This document shows positions 3,749 through 17,151 of a DNA stretch of 64,000 nucleotides, piece after piece (position 1 is the first letter of the stretch; each line of letters begins with the position of its first letter). Position numbers and translations under genes: made by a program. The notes under the pieces were generated by a model, which made no database searches, was not told where the DNA came from, and saw nothing but the letters and a program-made list of their open reading frames with translations. Where the stretch lies: IMG/VR virus record IMGVR_UViG_2740892119_000002, one strand, 5' to 3'. Source of the DNA: a virus (taxonomy: Duplodnaviria > Heunggongvirae > Uroviricota > Caudoviricetes).

Positions 3749-4790
3749 ATCTAACGCTCGACGAATGACTTGTGATAGCGCCGACTCCAAGCGCGTAATC
3801 AAAGAACAATCGTTGATGCATCGCCAGCCTACCGTGCGTCTTCTCCCAATTATCGCGGTCACGCTCAATATCACGCTGGCATGACTGGCACAGAGGAATA
3901 GCATAAATGTCATGCGCGCATAATCGACTATGACGAACGATATAAGGCGTAATGTGAGCGCCAGCTCCCGCAGCTCCACAGCCACAGCATGGACGGGAAG
4001 CCACAAAGTCCATGTACTCGGGCAATTTTAGCGATTGAAGTTTTGGTATCTTGAAATGCGCCATACCTGGGTCGGAGTCAACATCCACAGGGCATACTTT
4101 TGCACGCATCGGCGCGGCGCGTTCTTCCATCATCTGAACATATGCTGTAGCGCGATCGTCATACGGGCGAATATCCGCCTCTTTCAGAGGTCCGCTATCC
4201 TGCGGAGTAGCCTTCATCTTATTTATTGATATGCGGCAGACTTCTTCCGGCATCAGGTGCATCATGTTGCGCATGAAAGCCCACCAGCACAGCTCCTGAA
4301 TACTTAAATCATGGCTATTTGAAAGGCCCATTTCCTGACGGGCGACATCCAGTATCCAGTTAACGCGATTATTGTGCAGCGTTTCTTTCAGCTCATTAAA
4401 ACCACGCATCCGGTAATGGTTATCGTGATGCCAGCACAACAACACCGCGCTATTGTCTCGTTCAGCGTGGACAATATGGTTGTCACACCAACTACGATCT
4501 GCGGCCTGGCATTGACCCTCTTTCCTACGCAACCACGCCACCAGCGCGTCAATTCCACCAATACGGCGAAACAGTTCATCGCTGTTAAAAAACGGCTGCA
4601 ACGCCTCATTTGTTGCCATGGTTTGCTCGGTAACAACGAGGCCGTCTTCCATGTGCTCGATTAACTCACGCGGCACCGGCTCCATAATAAATTTACGGCC
4701 AGCCTCCACCAGCTTTCTGACCTCCTGATCCACTTTGAACGTGGCGAGGCCAAGCTCTTTCTGTACAAAGGGAGTAATTACGGCTTTCAC
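3747..4790 (-). CDS. pdcB: PdcB-like conserved phage protein (347 aa) with Cys/His-rich C-terminus (possible zinc/HNH-like, DUF968-type)
   Basis: C-terminal CCGCG...CAHD...CQSCQ cluster; location next to doc as in P1. Confidence 0.55.
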
Positions 4791-4817
4791 ATCACACCTT
4801 TAATCACTGATTGGGCT

Positions 4818-4997
4818 TTATCTGCTGCCCGGCATTCTCTGTTTAAGCACAACCATTTCCTGACGGCATAACACAGCAATAGCGGTCCTGACTCCAATTT
4901 GCTTACCAACCAGGTATTGCTTTACCTTGCGGCGACTCACGCCATCAAGAAGCATCTTTAACGCTTCACGGGACAATTTGTTGTATTTGCGTGCCAT
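4818..4997 (-). CDS. small basic hypothetical protein (about 59 aa from MARKYNKL), possible HTH
   Basis: ORF 4818..5018 overlapping the doc stop; start taken at the internal Met; weak. Confidence 0.25.
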   Translation of the reverse strand: MARKYNKLSREALKMLLDGVSRRKVKQYLVGKQIGVRTAIAVLCRQEMVVLKQRMPGSR

Positions 4998-5001
4998 TAA
5001 T

Positions 5002-5382
5002 CTACTCCGCAGAACCATACAATCTACGTAACGTGTCGGCGACAGAAGATACAGATATCTCGCCAGTCGCAGCGCCTACAGTAAGGTCTGCCAGTTCAGG
5101 TGAATCAAATACCTGCACCCCGTTACGGCGTAGAAATAGCAGCGCACTGTTTAGCGCGGTACGCTTATTGGCATCATTGAATATATGCCCTCTCGCCGTA
5201 GCCACCAGGTAGGTGGCGGAGACTTCGAAAAGGTCGGTGATCTCTTCGTAGGCAACTCTGGCCTGAACTCTCCCGATAATGGCCTCTGCCCTACCCGGAT
5301 CTGACATTCCCGGCAGGCCGCCGTAGCGGCTTATATTCGCATCATGAAGCGCAATAAGTTCTTCCGGTGATATATGCCTCAT
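5002..5382 (-). CDS. doc: Doc toxin (Fic-fold kinase, death on curing)
   Basis: 126 aa [22 protein letters not shown]... recognised as P1 Doc; overlaps the phd stop. Confidence 0.95.
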
Positions 5383-5603
5383 TATCGGTTAACCAGTTCC
5401 TTGTTGGTGGAGTCCAGGGTGTCAAACAGGGATGCAAATTCAGCATCCAGCGCCGCTTTTTTGTAGGCTTCGAAAGTAGCCTTGCTGACAATTACTGCTG
5501 GCTCACGGCCTCTGCGGGTGATTTCAACCTCTTCCCCGGCTTCAACATTGTTGAGCACTTCAGAAAGGTTGCCACGCGCGGTACGGAAGTTAATGGATTG
5601 CAT
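5382..5603 (-). CDS. phd: Phd antitoxin (prevent host death)
   Basis: [32 protein letters not shown]..., 73 aa from the second Met; classic phd-doc overlap. Confidence 0.9.
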
Positions 5604-5675
5604 AAACACCTCGTGTACTCGTTATGTGTACACAATTATAAACTTCACAGGCATAAAGCACCAGCACTTTGCAGC

Positions 5676-6065
5676 TTAAATAACCGGACAATCATCAAAT
5701 TCCCCACTTCGGGCATCATTGATGACATGAGTGATTACACCAAAAACAGCATTACTGCCCGTGTATCCATCGTCATCTACTGGTAACGCCTCTTTCTTCC
5801 CGGTGCTTAAATCCTCCAGGTGCTGGCGCGGATACTTCCTGTATCTCTTTATGCGATATTCACCCTCCATAGCGCACACAAGCAGAGAACCATCAACCGG
5901 AGTAAGCGAGGAATCAACCACCAGCAAAGCACCCTGCAATATTCCCTCACGGTGATGGCTATCAGCTGCCCGCATGAAGTAGGTCGCTGAAGGATGTCTA
6001 ATTATCTGCTGATCAAGAGAAATTCGGCTTTCAACATAATCCGCCGCAGGAGAAGGGAAGCCCAT
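5676..6065 (-). CDS. humD: HumD, UmuD' homolog
   Basis: 129 aa S24-peptidase-like C-terminal domain; LexA box immediately upstream. Confidence 0.8.
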   Translation of the reverse strand: MGFPSPAADYVESRISLDQQIIRHPSATYFMRAADSHHREGILQGALLVVDSSLTPVDGSLLVCAMEGEYRIKRYRKYPRQHLEDLSTGKKEALPVDDDGYTGSNAVFGVITHVINDARSGEFDDCPVI

Positions 6066-6083
6066 AGCGTTTTACCTCAATGA

Positions 6084-6103
6084 TACTGTTTATTCATACA
6101 GTA
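6084..6103. promoter_or_regulatory. LexA (SOS) box TACTGTTTATTCATACAGTA upstream of humD
   Basis: CTGT-N8-ACAG palindrome 19 bp upstream of the humD start. Confidence 0.7.
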
Positions 6104-6188
6104 TACATTGAAAAGGCATAGTTTGTGAAAGCGGGGTTTGTAGGCGCGCCACGCTGGGGGCTAATCACATTTCTCCCCCATCTTGCCG

Positions 6189-6461
6189 TTATTTTTTTGG
6201 TGCATCCTCGTTCTGATACACCGGATCGCTCCCTTTTGGCAACTGGAGGCTTAACTGCCGATAGTGCCGTAACCGTTCCATGAAATAGGTGCGCAGATTC
6301 TCTGGTTGCTCGCGGGCTACCTGTTCAGCTATGACAGGTATGTTCAATCGCTCTTTGTACGCCACACCGCTGGCAGCCAGATCAACGTTAACCTTATCCC
6401 GTTCTTCCTGACTTTTAGCTGCAATATTCCAATCGTGCATATCAAATCCCATCCAGAACAA
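6189..6461 (-). CDS. hot: Hot, homolog of DNA polymerase III theta subunit; true start probably the internal Met (MHDWNI)
   Basis: [43 protein letters not shown] closely resembles E. coli HolE. Confidence 0.8.
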
Positions 6462-6889
6462 TTGCGTAACGACTATTATTTAACCAGCAAAGTAACTTTT
6501 AATTTTTTTTCTTTTCCCATTGATTTTTGTGCACAGCTTATCTGCCTTGCCGTGCGCAGAATCAACTTTTTTCTTCCTGATTTATCCACAAAGTTATGCA
6601 CTTGCAAGAGGGCCATTTTCTAAATATTGTGATGTTTCACAAATGAAATGAATTTTGATTAATGAAGATAAGGAGAAAATTTGAGATGCAATCATGACGT
6701 TAATAGATAGGGTCTGCATTACAGACCCCATCCGCATCAAGGAATTAGCCGTTCCCTGATGTTGTTCCGAAAACATGTGCCGTAAGCTCACGTTAACGAC
6801 TTTCTTTCACCGAATCCAACTATATAGGGGTTGGGTTTCTACGTCAACGTGAGCAAGTGCTCCTTTACATTTGACAAGGAACCACCTTA

Positions 6890-7027
6890 ATGACTGCTTT
6901 TTTTCAGTTCCTGAGTGCATTTTTAGATGCGCCTGTTATTAGCCAGATTCTGGCGATCATCCTCATCATCGTTTTGATTTTGCTTTTAAGGTCAGTAAAA
7001 AATGGAATTATGCACTGGCTTACTTAA
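6890..7027 (+). CDS. 45-aa hydrophobic peptide MTAFFQFLSAFLDAPVISQILAIILIIVLILLLRSVKNGIMHWLT; candidate small membrane toxin or membrane protein
   Basis: AGGAA Shine-Dalgarno 8 nt upstream; lies on the opposite strand in a 640-bp AT-rich gap between minus-strand genes; below the ORF-track size cutoff. Confidence 0.35.
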   Translation: MTAFFQFLSAFLDAPVISQILAIILIIVLILLLRSVKNGIMHWLT

Positions 7028-7101
7028 TGTTCAGTGAAACATTAAAATCTCCTTGATGTGGAAACAATCATTTTCTGTATGTGCTGGTGGGTACCTGTAG
7101 T

Positions 7102-7464
7102 TCAGCTTTCGTTGGCATTTAACTTCGTCTTTGCTTTCTCCACCAGCAACTTCCAGATGCCTATTTCATTAGCAGCCGCCTTGATGGCGGCATAAAAAGC
7201 ATCTTGCTGATCGTAACGCTGAATCTGTTTTTTCAGTTTTGCCTCCACCAATTTAATTTCATTACGTGCTTTCTGAAGCCGCAGCGCCGCCCGGTTACGT
7301 CTGTTCTTGTATAGCGCGTTAATCTCTGATAATTGCTTTAATTTACCAGCCTGACTGCGGATTATCGCCTCTCTGACTTCTGCCGTGCGTCTCATCTGAT
7401 CTCTTAAGAGTTCACCGTTTTCGATAATTCTTTCAAGGTGTTTGATGTGATCTGCAACTCTCAT
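7102..7464 (-). CDS. coiled-coil hypothetical protein (120 aa)
   Basis: ORF with ATGA overlap to the upstream gene; heptad-rich, K/R/E-rich. Confidence 0.5.
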   Translation of the reverse strand: MRVADHIKHLERIIENGELLRDQMRRTAEVREAIIRSQAGKLKQLSEINALYKNRRNRAALRLQKARNEIKLVEAKLKKQIQRYDQQDAFYAAIKAAANEIGIWKLLVEKAKTKLNANES

Positions 7465-8393
7465 ACTTCACCCTCGCTTGTATCGCCAGCATCCACCAGC
7501 GGCAATAAAGCCCTGGCCATCTTATGAACCAATAGTGCATCAATAATGCCAAGCGTATGCCCCGGCTTAATGTTTAATGCCGCCTCAAGGTGACACCTTT
7601 CCAGGCCACTTTTCTCGGCTTGTTTATGATGATCTGGTGTAATAACGTCGCCCAAAACACGGCTAATTCTTTCTCGTAATTGCTGGGTGCCAGCACACTT
7701 GATCGCTGTATCGTGGAGACGGTTAACCAGTTCGCGATAAACATGCGGCTTAATTCGGATACGTTCACCGGTGACGCCCTTTCCTGGTGCTGGCACCGAA
7801 CTATCCGGAATATCCGGATAGTTGCCAGCCTCGTAAGCTACCCGCAGCCAGTGCATGAATGTTTCAGTGGACACACAACCACAGTCCACATCGATTTTCC
7901 CGCGTTGCTGTTCCAGCCATTGCCCAAAATCCAACCTGTAAGTCTTACTTTCAAGTTCATCACCATTGAACTCGACTTTCTGCGACGCTATGAGAGCTGA
8001 TTCGTATTGTTCGCGAGTGACAACTGACTGGTATTCATCGCTATCAAGGTCACCAATTGGAAGCTCAATCTCACAACAAAAATTGCGCCCAAAGAAAGTG
8101 TCTTTTTTGTGGTCTGAGCCAAAAGCAAAAGTCGCGCATGGTGCCATTAAATTGACACTGGGTAGGTAACAATAACTCATTCCATCAGGCCACCCACCGC
8201 ACTTAGGCAGTTCCTTCACTAACAAGTCGATAAACTTCATTTTTTTATCATCTTTGCAAGCCGCCAAAGCCATTTGGGCAAGTGCCAATACTTCATCTGC
8301 CGTATATCCAGCACCGTGACCATACATTTCGATACGGGAAATAATCTCTGATATACGCTCTTCAGTGATTCTGGTCATTTCTTTTTGCGCCAT
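7461..8393 (-). CDS. hypothetical protein (310 aa), Cys-rich central region
   Basis: Long ORF translationally coupled to neighbours; no recognisable motif. Confidence 0.55.
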   Translation of the reverse strand: MAQKEMTRITEERISEIISRIEMYGHGAGYTADEVLALAQMALAACKDDKKMKFIDLLVKELPKCGGWPDGMSYCYLPSVNLMAPCATFAFGSDHKKDTFFGRNFCCEIELPIGDLDSDEYQSVVTREQYESALIASQKVEFNGDELESKTYRLDFGQWLEQQRGKIDVDCGCVSTETFMHWLRVAYEAGNYPDIPDSSVPAPGKGVTGERIRIKPHVYRELVNRLHDTAIKCAGTQQLRERISRVLGDVITPDHHKQAEKSGLERCHLEAALNIKPGHTLGIIDALLVHKMARALLPLVDAGDTSEGEV

Positions 8394-8749
8394 TTCTTTT
8401 CACATTCCTTAGTCCATTTTTCAATGTTCATTTTGGCAATATCAGTCATTCCATCACCTAAGAAATACTTTCTCCGGTACGTCTTGCACTTAAACCACAC
8501 TACAACAGCCACCAGCCAGAAAATAAAAGGCCATACAGCAATACCAACTCCAGCCGCGATAAAGCCCAATAGCCATAAATGAAGCTCTCCAACTTCTGTT
8601 TGCGGCAATATTCTTAAAGAATTAAGCAGCAGACTGAAGGAATAGTCGTATGCATTGGCGGTATAAGACATGCAATCCATATAATTAAAGTCATAGCCTG
8701 CGGCTGCCGCCCATAATGGGCGGTCAAGAAAATGTTTTAGTGTCATCAT
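8375..8749 (-). CDS. membrane protein (124 aa) with two predicted TM segments and a lysine-rich tail
   Basis: Hydrophobic stretch LWLLGFIAAGVGIAVWPFIFWLVAVVVW. Confidence 0.5.
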   Translation of the reverse strand: MMTLKHFLDRPLWAAAAGYDFNYMDCMSYTANAYDYSFSLLLNSLRILPQTEVGELHLWLLGFIAAGVGIAVWPFIFWLVAVVVWFKCKTYRRKYFLGDGMTDIAKMNIEKWTKECEKKWRKKK

Positions 8750-8755
8750 ATAAAT

Positions 8756-9145
8756 TTAAGGTTCAGACCAGTTATCTTCAATAGCAATGCTTAATCTTTG
8801 TAGCCATTCTGCTAATTTCAGCATTGCTTCTCTTTCGCTTAAACCACGAGGAAAATCATCAAGCGAAATTGTTGGCTTGAAGCCCCCGTAATTATCTATT
8901 TCAACAGTCAGATTTTGCTCCAGCACGGTATTCCTTACGCGGCTATTGTGCCGAAGCAAATATACTGAACGTGATTTATTGGTTTTATGGTCAAACTGAT
9001 ATTCGGTAAGTATCATCTGGCTTTTGCCATGACTATTACCTCTCCACATACTTACCTCACTTAATAAAACAACTCCATGCGTAGTTGATGATTTTTTCCC
9101 ACGTAATATAAATCTGCACTCCGGCAGTAAAACCAAAGCCAACAA
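8756..9145 (-). CDS. hypothetical protein (129 aa; start may be the internal Met)
   Basis: ORF in the operon context. Confidence 0.4.
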   Translation of the reverse strand: MLALVLLPECRFILRGKKSSTTHGVVLLSEVSMWRGNSHGKSQMILTEYQFDHKTNKSRSVYLLRHNSRVRNTVLEQNLTVEIDNYGGFKPTISLDDFPRGLSEREAMLKLAEWLQRLSIAIEDNWSEP

Positions 9146-9227
9146 TTGCTGAAAAAATCAAAACATTTACTTTTGACATTATAAATTTTCTCTCGGTGTC
9201 GTAGGTGATAGCACCATAATTGATAAT

Positions 9228-9479
9228 TTAGTGAGTTAGCAGTTCCATTTTTTGGATGATTTCCGCATGAGCATCATCGTTATCAACACTTAACTCGTTT
9301 AATGCCTCTCGCACTACATCAACTTCTTCTGGTTGGAAGAAGTCATCTCGGTAGTCACCAAATAGAACCGAAACAAGCCTGCCACCAGCAACATCAAGAT
9401 TGGCGCTAACAGGTGGCTCTTTGCCATCCTCAAATTCGACTACAAAAGTTATTTTTCCCATCGTTACCACCAGCGACAA
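9228..9479 (-). CDS. small strongly acidic protein (83 aa)
   Basis: About 18 D/E against 6 K/R/H; composition resembles DNA-mimic or anti-restriction proteins. Confidence 0.45.
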   Translation of the reverse strand: MSLVVTMGKITFVVEFEDGKEPPVSANLDVAGGRLVSVLFGDYRDDFFQPEEVDVVREALNELSVDNDDAHAEIIQKMELLTH

Positions 9480-9543
9480 ATTGAATACAAACCCAGTGCT
9501 GCCGCCATCACAATTCCTACCGTGGTGAATGCTTCAGGCCAGC

Positions 9544-10431
9544 TCATTGATTCACCTCCTGCGGCGGTTCTGGTAGCGGCATCCAGAACAAGGCGTTCCC
9601 TAACCACGATAAAGTGCCGTCGCTCAACTCCACGTATTCCCCTTGCACCTGGCCTGCCATATACTCGCCGTGCTTTGAATAAATTAAAATCCAATCATCT
9701 TGAGCGGGCATTCGCTCACTACAGCTTATCCAACTATCCGGAGTTACCGGAGAGTTGCCAGCCAGTCTACGCAAAACAGCCTTAACAGCCTCAATACGGT
9801 CATCATCGCAATTTTCCAGCGTATCTATGCGGTCGAGCATGATGATGGCGTTATCAATATCAGGATTGCCAGTCCACTCATTACCGCGATTGGATTCGGC
9901 AGCCTGGTTGCCAGATGCTGGCTGATTGTCGGCTTGGCTATAGCTAACAGCACGGCAGGCATCCTCTACGTTCTTCACTGCATCTGCGCAGTAGTTATAG
10001 CGATTGCATTCCACTAACTTCTGCTTGAGATTTTCAATTGCTTGCGCGACATCAGCCTGTATTGGCGGAACGGCTGTTTGCTCTCGAACGTCATTAGTCG
10101 CTATCGGTTCTGCTGCCAACTGACTGGCATATTTGTTAATGGTAACGATAAGCTCTTGCTCGGCCTCATCCAGACAATCACCGATACCTCGCCTGTCACC
10201 GTCAAAATCATCGAAATCGGCACGAATCCTGGCAACCTCCCGGATTGCGGACAACACTTCACCAGGAATAAGCGGAGAGTTGCCCGATAGTACATTCTGC
10301 TCCAGCGATGCCAGAGCAATTCGTGCCAGTTCTTCCGCTTCTTCTGCTGGCAGTACAACGTTGCTACCAGGTCCGTATGTTTCGCGCCACTGCTTGATTG
10401 TCAGTAGTCGCTCTTTGGTTATAGTGGTCAT
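9544..10431 (-). CDS. lambdoid-like accessory protein (295 aa) with DUF551-like C-terminus
   Basis: C-terminal W..LPEPPQ motif; N-terminus MTTIT shared with the ORF at 10639..11103. Confidence 0.55.
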   Translation of the reverse strand: MTTITKERLLTIKQWRETYGPGSNVVLPAEEAEELARIALASLEQNVLSGNSPLIPGEVLSAIREVARIRADFDDFDGDRRGIGDCLDEAEQELIVTINKYASQLAAEPIATNDVREQTAVPPIQADVAQAIENLKQKLVECNRYNYCADAVKNVEDACRAVSYSQADNQPASGNQAAESNRGNEWTGNPDIDNAIIMLDRIDTLENCDDDRIEAVKAVLRRLAGNSPVTPDSWISCSERMPAQDDWILIYSKHGEYMAGQVQGEYVELSDGTLSWLGNALFWMPLPEPPQEVNQ

Positions 10432-10637
10432 TTGTTAACCCTCAAAACTTTATGCCCGGGCGCAAAAGCACGCGTTTTGTCTTTGCTTATTCGCCAGCCA
10501 TCCTTGCGCGCCTCTTTTGCACAGCCAGCCCATGACGTACCTATATACTCACCGAAGTCTGGCACTGGATATACACCTTCCGTGCACTGACGGCAGTCAC
10601 AATAGAGATGCATTGTGTAACTTGCGGCAATAGCCAT
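10428..10637 (-). CDS. small Cys-rich protein (69 aa)
   Basis: C..C..C...C pattern; start/stop overlap with neighbours. Confidence 0.4.
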   Translation of the reverse strand: MAIAASYTMHLYCDCRQCTEGVYPVPDFGEYIGTSWAGCAKEARKDGWRISKDKTRAFAPGHKVLRVNK

Positions 10638-10638
10638 A

Positions 10639-11103
10639 TCACCCTCCTTTACCCTGAAGCATGGCGTCGCTCCGCTCTATACCATCCAGCGCGATTCGCA
10701 GTGCCTGAATTGTGGTAGTGCTATCGTTTGGGGCTATTCCATATCGCTCGAATACAGCTAAATGGTTGCGCATAATCTCAGGCGTAAGCTCTTTGTAAGC
10801 ATAAGCAAGAGGCTCTGATGCATTATCCGGCACAACCGACGCAGGCGCGGCAGCATAAACAGGAATAACGTCCGCTTGCTCTTTATTGCTTTCATCCGTT
10901 AAAGCCCAGAATAATTTCCCGGCCGGATGTTTGAAAATATAAGCAACTGGTTCTGCACTATCAGCTTCGCGCCGCTTCTGTAGCTCTGCTGCCATTGCTC
11001 TCACGACTTCAACTGGTGCCCTTGCGGCAAACTCTATGTTGGTGATCAGCTCATTAAGATATTGCTCGCTGGGATACTGTTTCTTATTGGTAATAGTGGT
11101 CAT
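10639..11103 (-). CDS. acidic hypothetical protein (154 aa)
   Basis: ORF; MTTIT N-terminus paralogous to 9544..10431. Confidence 0.5.
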   Translation of the reverse strand: MTTITNKKQYPSEQYLNELITNIEFAARAPVEVVRAMAAELQKRREADSAEPVAYIFKHPAGKLFWALTDESNKEQADVIPVYAAAPASVVPDNASEPLAYAYKELTPEIMRNHLAVFERYGIAPNDSTTTIQALRIALDGIERSDAMLQGKGG

Positions 11104-11687
11104 GCCGCGTTTCCTTCTTTCTTATTAACAATTACACCGTCATATATTTCATTAAGGTGCCCTCTCAACTCCATGCGCCTTAATGCAGATAACATGTAAT
11201 CGCATTCAACCTGCTTATTTCCAGTAAATGGCTTATCGTCAGGATTACCCCAACAGCAATTACCCTTGGGCCACCCATGTACTTTCCGTACTCTTCCGTT
11301 AACAACGTGAAGTAATCCCCAGCCAGGTGGTAAATCCTCAATTGAAATAATTCCCGGCTCACTAATAAAGAATCGCCAGTCGCCCATTCCAAGAGACGGA
11401 TTTTTACGAAAACGCTTTTTTCTATCTGCCAACAAGTCAGCACGAGAACACTTCGCCTCTATCAGGCATGATGCTGAATTTCTGAATCCCATAGCATCTG
11501 GCTGTTCTCCGGTACTGGTTACAGCTATAAAGCGGTCATGAAAACAAACCTTGAACCCGTTGCGCTTAAGGAACTTGTACGCAATCTGACAGAGTTCGCG
11601 GTGTGTTAACGCCATATCACTCTCCTTTAGTGCGCAAGTGGTTTTTCCAGCGGTTTTGCGCCGCGCTGGGCTTTTTGCAAAAACCAC
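11100..11687 (-). CDS. putative PD-(D/E)xK-fold nuclease-like protein (start probably MALTHRELCQ)
   Basis: PDAMGF...CLIEAKCS resembles a D...E-x-K catalytic motif; inference only. Confidence 0.45.
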   Translation of the reverse strand: MVFAKSPARRKTAGKTTCALKESDMALTHRELCQIAYKFLKRNGFKVCFHDRFIAVTSTGEQPDAMGFRNSASCLIEAKCSRADLLADRKKRFRKNPSLGMGDWRFFISEPGIISIEDLPPGWGLLHVVNGRVRKVHGWPKGNCCWGNPDDKPFTGNKQVECDYMLSALRRMELRGHLNEIYDGVIVNKKEGNAA

Positions 11688-11977
11688 AATCCATCATCCC
11701 GTAATATTTCATCAACCCCATCCGTCGGTTGCTGAGTCTCACCCACTGCCAGACGCCAGGAGCGTTTCTACGAACTAACAGAATCTTTGCTTTACGGTTT
11801 TTCATCGCTTTGCTCTCCTGCGTCTCTTTGCTGCTCGTCGTGCCGCTGCAATACCGGTATGGCGGCGCTTTGGTGCCGGGATGATGTTGTCAGCCATCAG
11901 GACATGTGGCTTTGCAATTAGCGCAGAAGCCCAAAAACGAGTCGGGTACGGTAACAAGCCGATACATGCCACACGCA

Positions 11978-12766
11978 TTACTCACCTCCTTTGATGCGAA
12001 TGCCTGCGGCGCGGATTGCAGCGATGACTTCAGAAACTTTGTATGCCATTACCGTTTGGTAATCATCGTGAAAATCTGTTCGATGAAGCATGCTGCTACG
12101 TTCCGGGAGCGATATTTCCCGAGCATCCAGTTCCTTAACGCGTTCCTCCAGTTCGTAGACCCTGCATTGTTCTCTATCATCAATCAGATATAACCCAAGA
12201 CATTCGCTTTCTACCCAACCGCCAAAATCATGATCGTAACGCTCACATGAAAACTCACCGTCACCGTCCTTTGTTGGAATGGTGTAACTATCTAATGGGC
12301 CACCATATGTCGGCACATTTCCCAATGTTGGATGCTCAATCCACATGAAAAATGCACGTCCGGTTATTGGGCAAATATCTGGCCGCCATTGGTTACGAAC
12401 AGCCTTGGTTTCGGATAATTCTTCAGCGTGTTGTTTTACTTCCTCAAGCTCAACTCTCAGCTTCCCTACCGTTAGCGCAATATCCTCGTTCTCCTGATCG
12501 CGGCGTTTTATGTATTGCTGGTTTCTTTCCCGTTCATCCAGTAGTGCCAAAGCAACCTTTGGGTTGAACGCGGCAACATAACGAGCGTTGTTCTCTGCAT
12601 TTTTCTGTCCATCAAAGCCGGTCCATTTGATAACGTCTTCACATCGTTCATCACCGGGCGTGTGCACCGCATAAGTACCAGTATCCGTCGAAATAAATGC
12701 GACCCATTCGTCTGGTGTTGCCTTTTCTGCTATCTCACGCAGCGCCTGATAGTCAATCTTGCTCAC
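11978..12766 (-). CDS. Ead/Ea22-like protein (262 aa)
   Basis: N-terminus DYQALREIAEKATPDEWVAFIS...NARYVAAFNPKVALALL typical of lambdoid Ead/Ea22-like proteins. Confidence 0.6.
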   Translation of the reverse strand: MSKIDYQALREIAEKATPDEWVAFISTDTGTYAVHTPGDERCEDVIKWTGFDGQKNAENNARYVAAFNPKVALALLDERERNQQYIKRRDQENEDIALTVGKLRVELEEVKQHAEELSETKAVRNQWRPDICPITGRAFFMWIEHPTLGNVPTYGGPLDSYTIPTKDGDGEFSCERYDHDFGGWVESECLGLYLIDDREQCRVYELEERVKELDAREISLPERSSMLHRTDFHDDYQTVMAYKVSEVIAAIRAAGIRIKGGE

Positions 12767-13497
12767 TGGTCGCCTCCTTTGCGAAGCTGTTCAGCAATAC
12801 TTACGCATATCTCTGCGCCTCTAATCAGCCCCGGAACGTTCTTGTTTGGCCCCACTTCACCATCAACAAAATCAATCATCGCGTTACGAGCCATATCTAC
12901 CCCCTGCGCCCGCACTTCAGCCAGGCATTTGCGAAACTCGGAAACGTACTGTTCGACGCTCATTCCCCAGCTAAGTGGACATTCATTGAATGTTTCGCCT
13001 TCGTGCTCTTCATCAGGTAGCTCTTTGGTAAAGAACTCACGCTCAATGGCGTGGAGTGTGTCAGCAAAACGACGTAAGTTACTCAAACCTACCGTAATGG
13101 AGAATTCAGGAGCATCACATCCGACGCCCATCTGCTGATAAACGGCGGTTTTGAAGGCCTTAAGCCCCGCATTCTCCGCCACCAGCGCCGCGAGATTAGT
13201 CTCAAGCTCTGCAATTCGACACATAGCATCAATATTTGTGTCCTCCAGGCGCTTAATTTCACCAAGCAGCTCCAGTGCAACCTTTGGGTTGAACGCGGCA
13301 ACATAACGAGCGTTATTCTCTGCGTTTTCCTGTCCATCAAAGCCGGGCCATTTGATAACGTCTCCACATCGTTTATCACCGGGTGTATGCACCGCATATG
13401 TACCAGTACCCGGCGAAATAAATGCGACCCATTCGTCTGGTGTTGCCTTTTCTGCCGCCTCACGCAGTACCTGATAGTCAATTGTCATTCTCGCCAT
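12763..13497 (-). CDS. Ead/Ea22-like paralog (244 aa) with a different C-terminal domain
   Basis: N-terminal 80 aa about 85-90 percent identical to 11978..12766; about 210-bp direct DNA repeat. Confidence 0.6.
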   Translation of the reverse strand: MARMTIDYQVLREAAEKATPDEWVAFISPGTGTYAVHTPGDKRCGDVIKWPGFDGQENAENNARYVAAFNPKVALELLGEIKRLEDTNIDAMCRIAELETNLAALVAENAGLKAFKTAVYQQMGVGCDAPEFSITVGLSNLRRFADTLHAIEREFFTKELPDEEHEGETFNECPLSWGMSVEQYVSEFRKCLAEVRAQGVDMARNAMIDFVDGEVGPNKNVPGLIRGAEICVSIAEQLRKGGDQ

Positions 13498-14129
13498 CCT
13501 TCACAGTTGTAATCACGACAGCCTTCAAAATCATATGGGCTGTACTGCCAGGTGATTTTTCCGCAATGCGGACAATTCCAACGCACCTTCCCGCTTCGCG
13601 ACTTCTTTCTTCTGTTCTGCTTTTTCAACCAGTCAGGCATGACCAAACCTGCGCCCTGAACCATTGTTCTGCGGTTAAATTTATTGATATTGAACGTCCG
13701 GCGCTTTGCTGCATCAGCAATGGAAAATGGCAACCAAACTATTCCTGGTTCGTTTTTGTTGGCGACGCTAAAGATGGTCGCTTTACTGAAGTCATCTGTT
13801 GGCAATCCACCGTGTTGAAGCCAGTAAACATCGTTGCCGTTCCAGCTACCTTTTTTGTAGGCCACATACGCAGTGCAATCTGACTCAATCAGGCTTTCTG
13901 TAGGGATGTACTGGCAATCAACGTGCCACACTGCCATTGCATCCACGCTATCCGCGCAAACAGGCTGATCGATATCTCGCCCACAATTCCAGGCTTTTTG
14001 GGCTTCTTCCAGCGTGTAAACATGAGCGCGATCGATATCAGAACTGTAACCATTGCCGTTATGGCAATGGAATGAGGCGTTATTACCCACAGTTTCACGC
14101 AAGCACATCAGGTAAAAGCGGTTATTCAC
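13485..14129 (-). CDS. hypothetical protein (214 aa) with C-terminal CPHCG zinc ribbon
   Basis: ORF; CxxC...C.EGW C-terminus. Confidence 0.5.
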   Translation of the reverse strand: MNNRFYLMCLRETVGNNASFHCHNGNGYSSDIDRAHVYTLEEAQKAWNCGRDIDQPVCADSVDAMAVWHVDCQYIPTESLIESDCTAYVAYKKGSWNGNDVYWLQHGGLPTDDFSKATIFSVANKNEPGIVWLPFSIADAAKRRTFNINKFNRRTMVQGAGLVMPDWLKKQNRRKKSRSGKVRWNCPHCGKITWQYSPYDFEGCRDYNCEGWRE

Positions 14130-14406
14130 TGGTTGCCTCCGCTTCCCACGTTTTCAGACTTTCACCACAGAACGGGCAAAATGAAACTCGAATAGGCGAT
14201 TTAGAAAATTCACCAGACCGCAGCATGATCAGGTCTTGTGAATGAATTAATGCATGGTTATAGATTTTGTATTTCAGCAGACCTTTTCGCGTCGTGTATT
14301 CAGCGTCATGCTCCAGGGATTGCGTCAACGCCGCGCACGGTTCTATCTTGTTGCCATTAATTTGGCATTTTGACTCACTCACTGGTTGCCCCCTGAATAC
14401 GCTCAA
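14122..14406 (-). CDS. small hypothetical protein (94 aa) with CPFCG motif
   Basis: ORF overlapping its neighbours. Confidence 0.35.
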   Translation of the reverse strand: MSVFRGQPVSESKCQINGNKIEPCAALTQSLEHDAEYTTRKGLLKYKIYNHALIHSQDLIMLRSGEFSKSPIRVSFCPFCGESLKTWEAEATSE

Positions 14407-15115
14407 ACTCGATTACCCACACCCAGGGATTAGCGTTCCAGCATTCTTCACCATAGATGGATTCCCACAGGCGCTGGAACGCAACCTTGGCCATTGCGAA
14501 ATCTCCCTTGGGAGTTAGGAATGTTCCCGGGTGATCAGGAAGCAAACTTCCAGCAGGCTGAACGCCCTCATCCCTTGCATCGCATTCGCTGATATCGTTC
14601 AACCGCTCAACGCGCACGTTGGTAATTTCCAACAGGATGCGTGATGCCCATCGCGGCATGTGAATTGATGGACGCCACCCACCATCAAACTTTTCATTCA
14701 CAGTGTGAGGTTTCCAGTCGGCATCATCGGGTATCGACCATAAACCGTAATCACCAGGTTTTTGCTCACAACTGGCCCGATAAATCCTTGCTGCGTTCTT
14801 CTCATCGCCACGACAAAGGTTGTCGTTCCAGTCCACACTGCAACCATCTTCATTGCCTAATATCGCCCATGTTTCACGAACCCAAATTCGATCGCCGACG
14901 ATACCAAAGGGGCAATTGAAAACACTGCTTACACCATCAGCCCCGTACCACTGAAAACCTGCACCAATTTCCCTAACCATCACTGGTGCTTCTGGACCAA
15001 CTTCCGCAGGCTGATTTTTCATTATCCGCCGCGTCTGCGTTTTCCTTCCTTCGAGGATGGCTCGGACCATCTCATCGTTGAAAATCATGCCGCGCTCTTT
15101 CACTTCGCCTTTCAT
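14375..15115 (-). CDS. ASCH/PUA-like phage protein (246 aa)
   Basis: N-terminal MIFNDEMVRAILEGRKTQTRR resembles the ASCH-domain signature. Confidence 0.5.
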   Translation of the reverse strand: MKGEVKERGMIFNDEMVRAILEGRKTQTRRIMKNQPAEVGPEAPVMVREIGAGFQWYGADGVSSVFNCPFGIVGDRIWVRETWAILGNEDGCSVDWNDNLCRGDEKNAARIYRASCEQKPGDYGLWSIPDDADWKPHTVNEKFDGGWRPSIHMPRWASRILLEITNVRVERLNDISECDARDEGVQPAGSLLPDHPGTFLTPKGDFAMAKVAFQRLWESIYGEECWNANPWVWVIEFERIQGATSE

Positions 15116-15124
15116 GCATCCCCC

Positions 15125-15211
15125 TTACCCATGCGCGACGATGCCGCCAAAAGTGATAGAGAACAGCCAGAAATAAATCGCGGCCATAATGATTTTGAAT
15201 GCCGTGTTCAT
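15125..15211 (-). CDS. 28-aa hydrophobic peptide MNTAFKIIMAAIYFWLFSITFGGIVAHG
   Basis: SD CAGGAG upstream; below the ORF-track cutoff; could be fortuitous. Confidence 0.25.
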   Translation of the reverse strand: MNTAFKIIMAAIYFWLFSITFGGIVAHG

Positions 15212-15294
15212 ATTTTCAGCTCCTGTGATTGATTGGATACATGCCGCGCCTTACGGCATGTTTTTATTTTCACTTTCTCTGTTTTAAAAATCAA

Positions 15295-15310
15295 GATTTA
15301 TTAGAGCAAT
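15295..15310. promoter_or_regulatory. C1 operator (16/17 match, reverse orientation)
   Basis: GATTTATTAGAGCAAT = reverse complement of ATTGCTCTAATAAATC. Confidence 0.6.
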
Positions 15311-15816
15311 TATTGTTGATGGAGAAGCGCGTTTTCATACTCCCTGACCATTAACGTAAGTACGCCGTGACTCCTGAAAACACGCGCCACTTCAATCTTA
15401 TCTTCCAGCGCGAACGCAATTTTACTTAGACCAATTTTCTTCAGGAGATCAATCTTTGCTGGACCGTCATTTCTGTCATCGGTGGCAGGACGCATAGATA
15501 GCAAAGGCTCCGCCCCATTTGTTACGTGCTTACGCAACCAGGCTCGTGTTTTATCCCTGGCTATCTCACAGCGCCCGGTTACAAACCAGAGGGTGTAAAT
15601 GCCGGACAACTGGCGCACCATATCAATAACTGGAGTGATGGGAGCATCAGTGTCACAGGCAAGGTTAAACTCGTTCCAGTGCTCTGTTAATGCACCTTTG
15701 CCAGGTGGTGGAAGTAAATGCAGCCTGTCTTCCGTTGCCTCTGATATCGTCCCATCAATATCTACTATGACGATGTACGGACGTTCCTGGTGTGCGTGTT
15801 TATTGAAAATACTCAA
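15310..15816 (-). CDS. HAD-superfamily phosphatase (168 aa), polynucleotide-3'-phosphatase-like
   Basis: Motif I IVIVDIDGTISE (DxDGT). Confidence 0.6.
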   Translation of the reverse strand: MSIFNKHAHQERPYIVIVDIDGTISEATEDRLHLLPPPGKGALTEHWNEFNLACDTDAPITPVIDMVRQLSGIYTLWFVTGRCEIARDKTRAWLRKHVTNGAEPLLSMRPATDDRNDGPAKIDLLKKIGLSKIAFALEDKIEVARVFRSHGVLTLMVREYENALLHQQ

Positions 15817-15888
15817 ATGCCCTCCTCATTGGACGAAAAAAATGCTGGTGGGAGCACTCCACCAGCATTAAAAGTGACACTGTAACTA

Positions 15889-17151
15889 TCAGCGAACGTA
15901 AATAGTGCCGCCGTTCTCTTTTTCCCATGCATCGCTACGTGCATAGCAAACATCGAGAAGTCTTCTTGCCGCAGTTTCCTCTAAACCCAATTCGACAACC
16001 AACTGCTCATGACGGCGGGTAACCACATCAAACAGGGTATGCAGCCCTTTAGTTGCCAGATCATCAATGAATTCCGGTTCGAACGGCAGCTCTGCATCTG
16101 CCAACATAACCTCTTGCGCCCACTCAACTCGACGGACCAATTCCGGGCGACGGCTTTCCATCTCTTTACAGATCAATTCATGGAAGAACTCTACCCAACC
16201 TTCCGGCTGGAACTCGCGGAAAATTGCCAACGGCTGGAAGTTTGGCATCAACCATTCGTTGATTCGGATATCAATGGCATAGCCCATGTCGCAGCAGAAC
16301 TGATAAGCAAAGTCCAGCTTAGAAACGATATAAGGACGCTCGTTATTGAACTCTTTAGGCGATGAGATCCCATAAGCCAGGAGGCGCGGGAAGAAGGAGA
16401 TTTGCCCTAACGTCGGATGAAGTTTGCTTGCAGGGAAACGGCGCTCAGTAATGCCATACATTTCCTTCTTGAGCGTCGCAAATTTGGCATTCTCATTAAC
16501 CAGCGCGGTAACCTCTGCTTTTTTATTAGCAAATGCCACGCGCGCCTCGCTTGCATCTTTAATAGTTTTTTTGAGCTGTTGGTTAAGGTCGGCGACCTGC
16601 TTACGCAGTTCCTGTCGCTCGCTTTTAGCTTTGTTATAGCGTTTCTCAAGGTTAAAAGGATCAAGTTTCATGATCTCTTTATATTGAGATTTTAGCGTTG
16701 AAATCTGTGAGTTCCGCAGTTCAACCATCGCGGTCATTTCATTGAGTTTTGTTTCCAGCTCAATGCTTATACGTTCGGCATTATCAGCACGCTGGTTGGC
16801 GTCATGCGTCGCATCGTCGATCGCGTCCTGTTGCTGGCGTTTCAAATGTTCAATTTCCAGCTGAAGCTCTTCAATTTCTTTACCCTTCAGACCGAGATCC
16901 AACTGCATATTTTCAGCTGCATCTACCAGGGAATTATGGCTATCAGCTTCTGCGTTATAAACATCAATAAGCTGTGCGTGAAGCATCTCCGCTGACTGAA
17001 CCGCATTATCAAAAAAACGTGCTGTGAGGTCATCACAACTAACGCGGCGTTGCGCGGCCCGGATGTTCTGGATAATGGCCGGGATACCGGCATTCAGGAC
17101 ATCAGGGATACATACATTTTCGATTGATTGGTTTTGTGCTGAAGTGCTCAT
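15889..17151 (-). CDS. hypothetical protein (420 aa): N-terminal coiled-coil half, C-terminal globular domain
   Basis: Heptad-rich residues 90-230; no catalytic motif recognised. Confidence 0.55.
   Translation of the reverse strand: MSTSAQNQSIENVCIPDVLNAGIPAIIQNIRAAQRRVSCDDLTARFFDNAVQSAEMLHAQLIDVYNAEADSHNSLVDAAENMQLDLGLKGKEIEELQLEIEHLKRQQQDAIDDATHDANQRADNAERISIELETKLNEMTAMVELRNSQISTLKSQYKEIMKLDPFNLEKRYNKAKSERQELRKQVADLNQQLKKTIKDASEARVAFANKKAEVTALVNENAKFATLKKEMYGITERRFPASKLHPTLGQISFFPRLLAYGISSPKEFNNERPYIVSKLDFAYQFCCDMGYAIDIRINEWLMPNFQPLAIFREFQPEGWVEFFHELICKEMESRRPELVRRVEWAQEVMLADAELPFEPEFIDDLATKGLHTLFDVVTRRHEQLVVELGLEETAARRLLDVCYARSDAWEKENGGTIYVR

Follow-up and report, generated by a model that had tools for sequence, protein, structure and literature searches.

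A variable early-operon region between pap and hot of a P1-like phage-plasmid and its counterpart in the P1 reference genome

Introduction

Is the dense run of small genes that separates pap from hot in a P1-like phage-plasmid cargo that was inserted into a P1 backbone, or is it the P1 reference genome that departs from its relatives at this place? The question is raised by a stretch of 64,000 nt (IMG/VR record IMGVR_UViG_2740892119_000002; the whole of it is referred to as the window throughout), which is a P1-like phage-plasmid, and concerns a block of minus-strand genes extending from position 15115 to position 9228. A previous reading made from the nucleotide sequence only (the sequence-only reading) had taken about 9200-13500 for inserted lambdoid-style cargo and had seen in some of its acidic proteins a hint of DNA mimicry and anti-restriction. 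Here we argue, with good confidence in the interpretation as a whole, that the block is the variable body of a C1-repressed early operon, known as the pmgT operon in P1 and as the hea operon in P7. The region is one example of a hotspot that the literature knows as variable 'region 8' (PMC9603915) and as 'RD-5', between pap and lxr (PMC6906374), and near-identical copies of it are present in public records. In P1, the genes pmgT, pmgU, pmgV, upfN, upfO and hot were found to be non-essential, both by CRISPR interference (CRISPRi) and by deletion (PMC10695390), and the proteins of the block are early accessory, not core, proteins.

Results

Gene packing and control region

In the window, pap and hot lie 8.85 kb apart (Table 1), and the genes between them form an uninterrupted minus-strand series. 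According to a mechanical list of open reading frames (ORFs), the block from 15115 to 9228 consists of 13 genes arranged head to tail and encoding, in this order, proteins of 246, 94, 214, 244, 262, 58, 62, 171, 154, 69, 295, 27 and 77 aa. The sequence-only reading had counted about 14 short, tightly packed genes, which is close to what we find, all 12 junctions within the block being overlaps or gaps of -32 to +2 nt, with an AAGGAG-type Shine-Dalgarno sequence ahead of most of the starts. The 12 block genes of at least 58 aa were scanned against PHROGs, and each of them matched a family with E values of 1e-36 to 1e-124; they are therefore genuine genes of a phage rather than ORFs arising by chance. 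Position 9228, where the block had been closed, is not the end of the array, which runs on through four further genes to pmgV at 7102, and then hot. The GC content of the block (0.46-0.51) is not distinct from that of the backbone, only 8.0-9.4 kb and 6.4-7.0 kb being AT-rich, and an Rfam scan of 5500-16000 gave no RNA family at E <= 0.1.

Upstream of the array, adjoining the stop codon of pap, lies a C1 operator whose position is that of the annotated P1 OpmgT (the former Op88, with promoters P1/P2pmgT) and of the P7 Op(hea), which the P7 record describes as 'predicted to regulate expression of hea operon'. The window as a whole contains 10 C1-operator-like sites with at most 3 mismatches (3729-52697), while 0.29 were expected; a C1-like pair at 31482-31509, overlapping and in opposite orientation, resembles a bivalent operator. 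Between the operator and the first array gene come a GC-rich hairpin and a 28-aa hydrophobic leader ORF. For comparison, 80 P1-like IMG/VR contigs were gathered with Pap as the query, and the leader ORF was found in 78 of these 80 loci, the other two ending no more than 57 nt past pap; leader ORF and hairpin are conserved in P1, in P7 and in the 78 loci whose sequence goes beyond pap. Identity to the backbone is lost at 15121, directly after the 28-aa ORF, where hypervariable DNA begins, the leader ORF being the final constant feature ahead of the array. Within the array we found no strong minus-strand terminator and no convincing promoter, the scans giving no more than the shuffled expectation. 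From the position of the operator and the packing of the genes, we infer a single C1-repressed early transcript. The invariant head module, made up of C1 operator, promoter and 28-aa leader ORF, would, when C1 is lacking (upon infection or induction), drive one long, translationally coupled minus-strand transcript towards hot.

Comparison with the P1 reference

The sequence-only reading had given P1 about six genes between its acid-phosphatase gene and hot, and six is indeed the number in the P1 record (NC_005856). Alignment of the window with this record showed 97.8% DNA identity over 6186-7836, from hot through part of pmgU, and 96.9% over 14421-16000, covering the 5' part of pmgT and pap. 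Both alignments stop at one P1 coordinate, and the 6.58 kb that lie between them in the window (7837-14420) are absent from P1. The P1 junction reads ...CCCTGGGT followed directly by TACGAGG..., with about 1 nt of microhomology (its exact sequence being also given as ...CCCTGGGTTACGAGG...). At this place in P1 (6489-7558), pmgT (309 aa) and pmgU (111 aa) overlap by 196 nt. The window instead holds two whole genes, of which the first encodes a 246-aa protein corresponding to residues 1-232 of P1 PmgT (98% identity), while the 111 residues of P1 PmgU correspond to residues 200-310 of a 310-aa protein (95% identity). The last 77 residues of P1 PmgT have no match to the 310-aa protein and represent an alternative frame of its gene (ORF 7574-7768). 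Of at least 8000 PmgT homologs, most measure 224-250 aa, and only P1-type fusions are found at 312-318 aa. Since the two genes are intact in the window and truncated or fused in P1, it is P1 that is the deletion derivative, and the overlapping pmgT/pmgU pair of P1 is the scar of the 6.58-kb deletion.

The converse would be a recent insertion of lambdoid DNA into a short ancestral operon like that of the P1 reference, the short form then being primitive and the window derived. This would account for the mere six genes of P1 and for the tracts, 92-99% identical to DNA of Shiga toxin (Stx) phages, that imply recent transfer. It is nevertheless very unlikely, since (i) the P1 junction truncates two genes that are whole in the window, PmgT gaining an out-of-frame tail and PmgU beginning in the middle of the 310-aa protein, (ii) the PmgT length of the window is found in thousands of homologs, and (iii) the short form is absent from all 25 IMG/VR loci in which both anchors are present. 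An inserted block in an ancestor resembling P1 was thus rejected, because the truncated genes are those of P1. The window is not an insertion recipient; the supposed insert at 9200-13500 gives way to a P1-absent segment of other limits, with the deletion lying in P1, and PmgT and PmgV, the first and the last proteins of the supposed insert neighbourhood, belong to the P1 backbone. The laboratory P1 genome is accordingly a 6.6-kb deletion derivative of an array such as that of the window.

Variation among P1-like loci

Among the 25 loci that contain both anchors, the distance from pap to hot varies between 5.3 and 9.5 kb, none being as short as P1. Across the 80 loci, cassettes are present or absent from one locus to the next while their order is kept, namely T, 94, 214, EaA, EaB, 58, 62, NUC, 154, 69, 551, m, 77, 97, 124, 310, V, hot. 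One locus (L016) has all the cassettes of the window in the same order, and plasmid p1 of Escherichia coli EC11 (L093) carries 7837-14420 over its full length (100% coverage) with 99.8% identity. By contrast, about 20 of the 80 loci are devoid of any block cassette of the window; when 11 of these were aligned to it, the backbone match broke off at 15121-15154 and resumed near 5679 or 5762 at humD (8 loci) or near 6400-7100 at hot (3 loci). That the block might be conserved in all P1 relatives, which would refute an accessory block, was looked at, and its content proved not to be conserved. Other cargo found in the slot includes DUF1382 (the lambda Orf63 family), DUF4752 and a PAPS-reductase-family gene. 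In one contig (L061, 11201-14833; also in L081), the slot is occupied by a gene for an invasin/intimin-like inverse autotransporter of 1211 aa (IAT_beta, E 6e-109; Big_1; Invasin_D3); cargo of a virulence or adhesion type lies behind the C1 operator there.

With respect to EC11 p1, the NCBI pipeline calls the genes for the nuclease, the 154-aa protein, PmgT and the N-terminal two-thirds of the DUF551 protein frameshifted or partial pseudogenes, and PGAP annotates only the DUF551 part of the counterpart of the 295-aa protein. The same 'pseudogenes' are intact ORFs in the window; mosaic proteins seem to have been misread as pieces of longer reference proteins.

Sharing with lambdoid and Stx prophages

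The sequence-only reading had described the block as lambdoid-like, and this description was borne out. A megablast search with 9000-15300 returned 515 phage records, including more than 200 Stx-converting phages, at 90-99% identity, and 10639-14129 of the window runs colinear to the exo-xis region of Stx lambdoid phages, DNA identity to Stx phages being 92-99% (the same range holds for 10651-14140). Stx2c phage 5044 has 214, EaA, EaB, 58, 62, NUC and 154 in the same order, with NUC 99-100% identical, and in the annotated phage Lyz12581Vzw these genes form part of the early operon that is read leftward, with int/xis on one side and exo-bet-gam on the other. At the DNA level, lambdoid records gave no match to the hot-proximal cassettes (77, 97 and 124 aa). 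For the 77-aa protein, full-length matches occur in only three P1-like phage records, and relatives with 46-51% identity adjoin EaA in Salmonella phages of about 40 kb.

In complete E. coli genomes, pieces of 7837-14420 were detected in 3379 of 5426 (62%), whereas the whole segment (at least 80% coverage) was present in only 5. As the chromosomal places of these pieces (7490) far outnumber the plasmid places (763), the cassette pool lies mainly in chromosomal prophages. Most of 9551-14140 is common, near-identical DNA, shared with the pL exo-xis ('ea') region of lambdoid/Stx prophages residing in the same E. coli hosts.

Proteins of the array and their possible roles

Pfam searches covered 16 proteins, consisting of ten proteins of 9228-15115 (all but the 58-, 62- and 27-aa ORFs) and six more; NCBIfam and PADLOC scans covered the same ten. 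In the block proteins, the only Pfam matches were Ead_Ea22 (twice) and DUF551, relaxing the limit to E <= 10 adding only noise, and neither NCBIfam nor PADLOC matched any of the ten proteins, small ORFs and the hot-proximal 7102-9179 being outside the scan. Sequence searches of the Protein Data Bank (PDB) with the 246-, 171-, 214- and 262-aa proteins gave nothing significant. Every PHROG family matched carries the label 'unknown function', in line with the statement of the sequence-only reading that no function is assignable from sequence, which holds for most of the proteins.

Both Ead/Ea22-like paralogs that had been noticed earlier were recovered, scoring 118.9 and 71.9 bits (gathering cut-off, 27). 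They are 69% identical over their N-terminal 80-100 aa or so and unrelated after that, and neither C-terminal domain matches in sequence that of lambda Ea22, for which a structure has been solved. According to earlier studies, Ea22 is made early, is pro-lysogenic and tetrameric, and combines a conserved N-terminus and a coiled coil with C-terminal domains that can be swapped, DUF551 being one of these (PMC7093339, PMC10834534). By analogy with their lambda and Stx homologs, the two proteins of the window most likely bias the lysis-lysogeny decision. In lambda, ea22 is a non-essential gene. The expected DUF551-like protein was likewise found, PF04448 covering residues 233-291 of the 295-aa protein with 41.2 bits (cut-off, 22); the PHROG matches to this protein fall module by module.

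The 171-aa protein had been put forward as a PD-(D/E)xK-like nuclease, and a predicted fold and a motif agree with this. Its AlphaFold2 (AF2) model has a pLDDT (predicted local distance difference test) of 88, the alpha-beta-beta-beta-alpha-beta core of the PD-(D/E)xK superfamily and its (E)...D...(D/E)-x-K motif were both recognized, residues E37, D40, E53 and K55 are invariant in 41 homologs, and a profile alignment matches the motif D...ExK-SR-D. The profile reaches structure 3dnx (SPO1766) only at E 0.1. In total, 324 homologs were found, all in Enterobacterales; they form a phage-borne family, none of them with a Pfam domain. The protein itself matched no Pfam family at E <= 10, so that it seems related to the MmcB-like/DUF1052 group in fold and motif without being a member of that hidden Markov model (HMM) family. 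The NUC domain also occurs as a fused C-terminal domain behind an Ead/Ea22 N-terminus (homologs P0091, P0093 and P0104). On the strength of the model and the motif, a DNA endonuclease is the most likely identity of the 171-aa protein. A single frameshifted gene made up of the 62-aa ORF and the nuclease was considered and rejected, the 171-aa form being by far the commonest (1363 member sequences).

In the 214-aa protein, a basic linker connects the N-terminal domain to a Cys4 zinc ribbon at the C-terminus (conserved CxxC...C...C), in agreement with the zinc ribbon noted before; its predicted fold is confident and without a solved relative, and its family comprises at least 880 clusters. On the other hand, the ASCH-like character ascribed to the 246-aa protein could not be confirmed, as this protein had no Pfam match (ASCH, PF04266, included) at E <= 10. 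One PmgT homolog (P0332) aligned with the first 40 positions only of the ASCH profile (E 0.015; 16.4 bits, below the cut-off of 21.2), a comparison by hhalign of the PmgT profile with a small ASCH-like ORF gave a probability of 1.6%, and a search of PDB sequences with a profile of PmgT homologs found nothing; some PmgT homologs with 62-71% identity are named 'ASCH domain-containing' by NCBI.

As to the highly acidic proteins of the sequence-only reading, the designation fits the 77-aa protein, the only strikingly acidic one (isoelectric point (pI) 4.16; 23% D+E), applies moderately to the 295-aa protein (pI 4.31) and does not suit the 154-aa protein (pI 5.09, net charge -5). In Pfam and NCBIfam, no known DNA-mimic family (Ocr, ArdA etc.) was found for these three proteins, DUF551 being their only match. 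The hint of DNA mimicry and anti-restriction found nothing beyond amino-acid composition to back it, with no match in Pfam, NCBIfam or PADLOC. An anti-restriction or anti-defence island, in which the acidic 77-, 295- and 154-aa proteins would act early as DNA mimics against host restriction, is in our estimation unlikely, although several features are consistent with it, that is, the early, repressor-controlled expression that the operator indicates, the acidity of the 77- and 295-aa proteins, the non-essential and hypervariable state of the genes (as is usual for counter-defence genes), and the fact that relatives may carry a gene for a DNA methyltransferase or one of the PAPS-reductase family in this slot (JL22 adsM, pW619, Lyz12581Vzw), genes of a type often linked to restriction evasion. 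What speaks against it is that the Pfam, NCBIfam and PADLOC scans returned no anti-restriction family (ArdA, Ocr or ArdB/KlcA-type), no dedicated anti-defence HMM search having been made, that the 154-aa protein is not notably acidic, and that composition alone is weak evidence. Moreover, the C-terminal domains of Ea22 are generally acidic without known mimicry (PMC10834534).

Tentative as well, and of low probability, is the idea that at least one cassette encodes a new host-takeover or counter-defence effector, the candidates being the 214-aa, 77-aa and DUF551 proteins and the Ea22-linked nuclease, with the Ead/Ea22 N-terminus as a generic oligomerising scaffold and effector domains swapped at conserved linkers; if so, P1-like plasmids and lambdoid prophages would draw on one effector pool. 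A counter-defence role for some of the block genes has a similarly low probability.

Lysogenic conversion was also weighed, the array then being cargo expressed from the plasmid prophage for superinfection exclusion, anti-phage defence or virulence. This would find a place for the small membrane proteins of 27, 40 and 124 aa in the array and for the 28-aa leader ORF, as well as for the invasin/intimin-like autotransporter of some P1-like contigs, and prophage hotspots are frequent sites of defence systems (PMC9122126). We nevertheless hold it to be very improbable, given that an array behind a C1 operator should be repressed in the lysogen, that PADLOC matched none of the ten proteins scanned, and that the lambdoid homologs are early lytic pL genes. 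Prophage defence cargo was thus rejected, the array being C1-repressed and lacking any PADLOC match.

Annotation labels would favor yet another role, in virion morphogenesis, since 'pmg' stands for putative morphogenetic and RefSeq uses names like 'minor tail protein' in the P1 and P7 records. Such a role is scarcely credible for genes of which pmgT, pmgU and pmgV are non-essential in P1, most of which are missing from P1 itself, whose homologs are located in lambdoid early, not late, operons, and whose 'minor tail protein' has a predicted PD-(D/E)xK nuclease fold; it was rejected on the grounds that the genes are non-essential and absent from P1. Two labels of the P7 record (NC_050152) look wrong, namely 'minor tail protein' at 4769-5284 (Upf89.0), which is 100% identical to the nuclease-fold protein, and 'DNA primase' at 6850-7431 (Upf86.8), which is a PmgT-family protein.

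Junctions and mosaicism

Comparison of the window with 93 loci yielded 57 similarity breakpoints, 42% of which are at most 30 nt from a gene boundary against an expectation of 15.7%, a value of 42% being reached in none of 2000 randomisations (the compared loci are related, which makes the P value of this enrichment optimistic). The ends of genes hold the Shine-Dalgarno sequence of the next gene, as in ...AAAGGAGGTGAGTAATG and ...AAAGGAGAGTGAcATG. Within genes, a direct repeat of 225 nt is common to both Ead/Ea22 genes (12533-12757 and 13258-13482; 90% identical), and a 27-nt linker repeat occurs in three copies, its 12-nt core having 3 matches with 0.46 expected. Each copy of the linker repeat marks a module junction inside a protein, and six breakpoints fall at the three copies (7802/7833, 9732/9760 and 10282/10297). 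A left module ending in ...VLRRLA is joined to a DUF551-type right module in 20 cases and to a PmgU-type one in 5, and across loci at least 4 different left modules precede the DUF551-type right module. The G-N-(S/Y)-P linker may be a hotspot of domain shuffling; the endpoint of the P1 deletion abuts its copy 1.

These patterns suggest that recombination among co-resident elements keeps rebuilding the array, with exchange taking place at gene junctions, at shared N-terminal modules (Ead/Ea22, 'MTTIT') and at the repeated G-N-(S/Y)-P linker. In this manner, cassettes and protein domains would be gained, lost and swapped in frame while the order is preserved. Since microhomology at the P1 junction amounts to about 1 nt, a further contribution comes from illegitimate recombination with subsequent selection.

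A C-terminal 'K/R-G-E' motif, of a significance described as unknown, has been reported in all Ea22 proteins (PMC7093339). In the window, this motif falls on the Shine-Dalgarno sequence (AAAGGAGG) of the overlapping gene that follows (11978-11990, 11617-11630, 10639-10650 and 12763-12775). The sites are the 3' ends of the Ead/Ea22, 62-aa and 154-aa genes, and array genes other than those of Ea22 end alike (...TKGE*, ...GKGG*). The 'motif' may thus be a signal of translational coupling and not a feature of the protein.

Table 1. Features of the pap-hot region, in positions of the 64,000-nt window, listed from pap to hot
Feature	Position	Strand	Evidence or remark
pap, HAD/PNKP-type phosphatase, proximal anchor	15310-15816	-	PF25109, E 3e-11; 93-98% identical to P1/P7 Pap
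C1 repressor operator, equivalent of P1 OpmgT/Op88 and P7 Op(hea)	15294-15310	-	16/17 matches to ATTGCTCTAATAAATTT
GC-rich hairpin between C1 operator and leader ORF	15239-15261
28-aa hydrophobic leader ORF (MNTAFKIIMAAIYFWLFSITFGGIVAHG)	15125-15211	-	without annotation in the P1 record
246-aa protein, intact form of P1 PmgT, first array gene	14375-15115	-	phrog_874
94-aa ORF (86 aa from an internal GTG), P7 Upf87.4 homolog, C...C...CxxC	14122-14406	-	phrog_4030, E 2e-43, residues 9-92
214-aa zinc-ribbon protein, P7 Upf87.6 homolog	13485-14129	-
Ead/Ea22-like paralog A, 244 aa	12763-13497	-	PF13935, E 1e-19; phrog_368
Ead/Ea22-like paralog B, 262 aa	11978-12766	-	PF13935, E 3e-34
58-aa strongly basic protein, pI 12	11802-11978	-	phrog_13831, E 9e-42
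62-aa basic protein, stop 1 nt ahead of nuclease start	11617-11805	-	phrog_1380, E 1e-40
171-aa (195 aa from an upstream GTG) PD-(D/E)xK nuclease-fold protein, MmcB/DUF1052-like, P7 Upf89.0	11100-11615	-	predicted fold and motif
154-aa protein, mildly acidic, pI 5.09	10639-11103	-	phrog_6847, E 5e-107
69-aa Cys-rich protein	10428-10637	-	phrog_926, E 1.5e-36
295-aa acidic three-module protein (N-terminal MTTIT, middle, C-terminal DUF551)	9544-10431	-	PF04448, E 3e-10
27-aa hydrophobic ORF, translationally coupled to neighbours	9464-9547	-	ORF and Shine-Dalgarno; in 28/80 loci
77-aa strongly acidic protein, pI 4.16, net -12	9228-9461	-	phrog_3876, E 5e-53
40-aa hydrophobic ORF	9057-9179	-	hot-proximal array
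97-aa protein	8756-9049	-	hot-proximal array; PHROG
124-aa membrane protein	8375-8749	-	hot-proximal array; PHROG
310-aa protein, C-terminus = P1 PmgU	7461-8393	-	hot-proximal array; PHROG
120-aa protein = P1 PmgV	7102-7464	-	hot-proximal array; PHROG
hot, DNA polymerase III theta homolog, distal anchor	6189-6461	-	PF06440, E 6e-34
Segment absent from the P1 reference, 6.58 kb	7837-14420	.	both flanking alignments stop at one P1 coordinate
27-nt linker repeat, three copies, encodes G-N-(S/Y)-P	7807-7833, 9740-9766, 10265-10291	-	direct-repeat family

Discussion

Overall, the block is a real but ordinary hypervariable early-operon region, of a kind already described, and the locus by itself reveals no new kind of system. 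Several points weigh against the interpretation of the block as the variable body of a C1-repressed early operon rebuilt by recombination, and have to be set beside it, i.e., (i) most of the block genes are without functional evidence, (ii) the promoter consensus scan is uninformative (11 sites, 15 expected), the transcript of the whole 8 kb from the C1 promoter being only inferred, (iii) the pro-lysogenic role is carried over from Ea22 homologs with different C-terminal domains, and the PDB sequence search gave no match for the 262-aa protein, (iv) what identifies the nuclease is a predicted fold together with a conserved motif, and not an activity, (v) breakpoints are proxies for recombination points, and (vi) the one exactly readable junction, that of P1, has very little microhomology.

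What is new here amounts to small points, consisting of the pmgT/pmgU deletion scar, the predicted nuclease fold with its fusion to Ea22 N-termini, the linker as a likely site of domain swapping, and the overlap of K/R-G-E with the Shine-Dalgarno sequence. The wider meaning of the locus is that a phage-plasmid and unrelated lambda-like prophages of one host share a pool of early accessory genes, and that the textbook P1 genome is a deleted, atypical version of the region. For annotation, it follows that P1 pmgT and pmgU are deletion remnants and that readers of the records are misled by labels like 'morphogenetic', 'minor tail protein' and 'DNA primase'. The array also provides a defined and very widespread set of candidates, with pieces in 62% of the complete E. 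coli genomes, for the mining of host-takeover and anti-defence proteins.

Among known systems, the closest are the P1 pmgT-hot and the P7 hea operons, with which the window shares the locus, the flanks pap and hot, the C1 operator and the leader. P7 already has Upf87.6 (the 214-aa protein), Upf87.4 (the 94-aa protein; 97% identity), Upf89.0 (the nuclease), Upf88.3 (Ead-like) and Upf90.8 (PmgV). Compared with P1 and P7, the set of the window is longer and otherwise assorted, comprising two Ead paralogs together with the genes for the 58-, 62-, 154- and 69-aa proteins, DUF551, and the 77-, 97- and 124-aa proteins.

The exo-xis ('ea') region of the pL operon of lambda and Stx phages is likewise an early, non-essential array of small ORFs with Ea22, DUF551 and, in relatives, DUF1382/Orf63, its gene order being as in the window. 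The two arrays differ in their setting, that of the window belonging to a Myoviridae-type phage-plasmid, under C1 control and flanked by pap and hot, whereas the lambdoid one is controlled by CI/N at pL and flanked by int/xis and exo-bet-gam. With Ea22 of lambda, Phi24B, 933W and P27, the paralogs of the window have in common the PF13935 N-terminus, a coiled-coil-like part followed by C-terminal domains of unrelated sequence, and an acidic character (pI 4.7-4.8 in the paralogs), while these domains do not match the solved lambda one in sequence and the window has two tandem paralogs where lambda has one gene.

Finally, the mosaic recalls what has been proposed for lambdoid phages, namely the 'boundary sequence' model and that of homeologous recombination (both models being cited in PMC3233612 and PMC2327257). 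As in the boundary-sequence model, the module boundaries of the window are found at gene and domain boundaries, with short conserved sequences at the junctions. Unlike in that model, the one junction that could be read exactly, the P1 deletion, is illegitimate, and the partners are different virus groups, P1-like phage-plasmids on one side and lambdoid prophages on the other.

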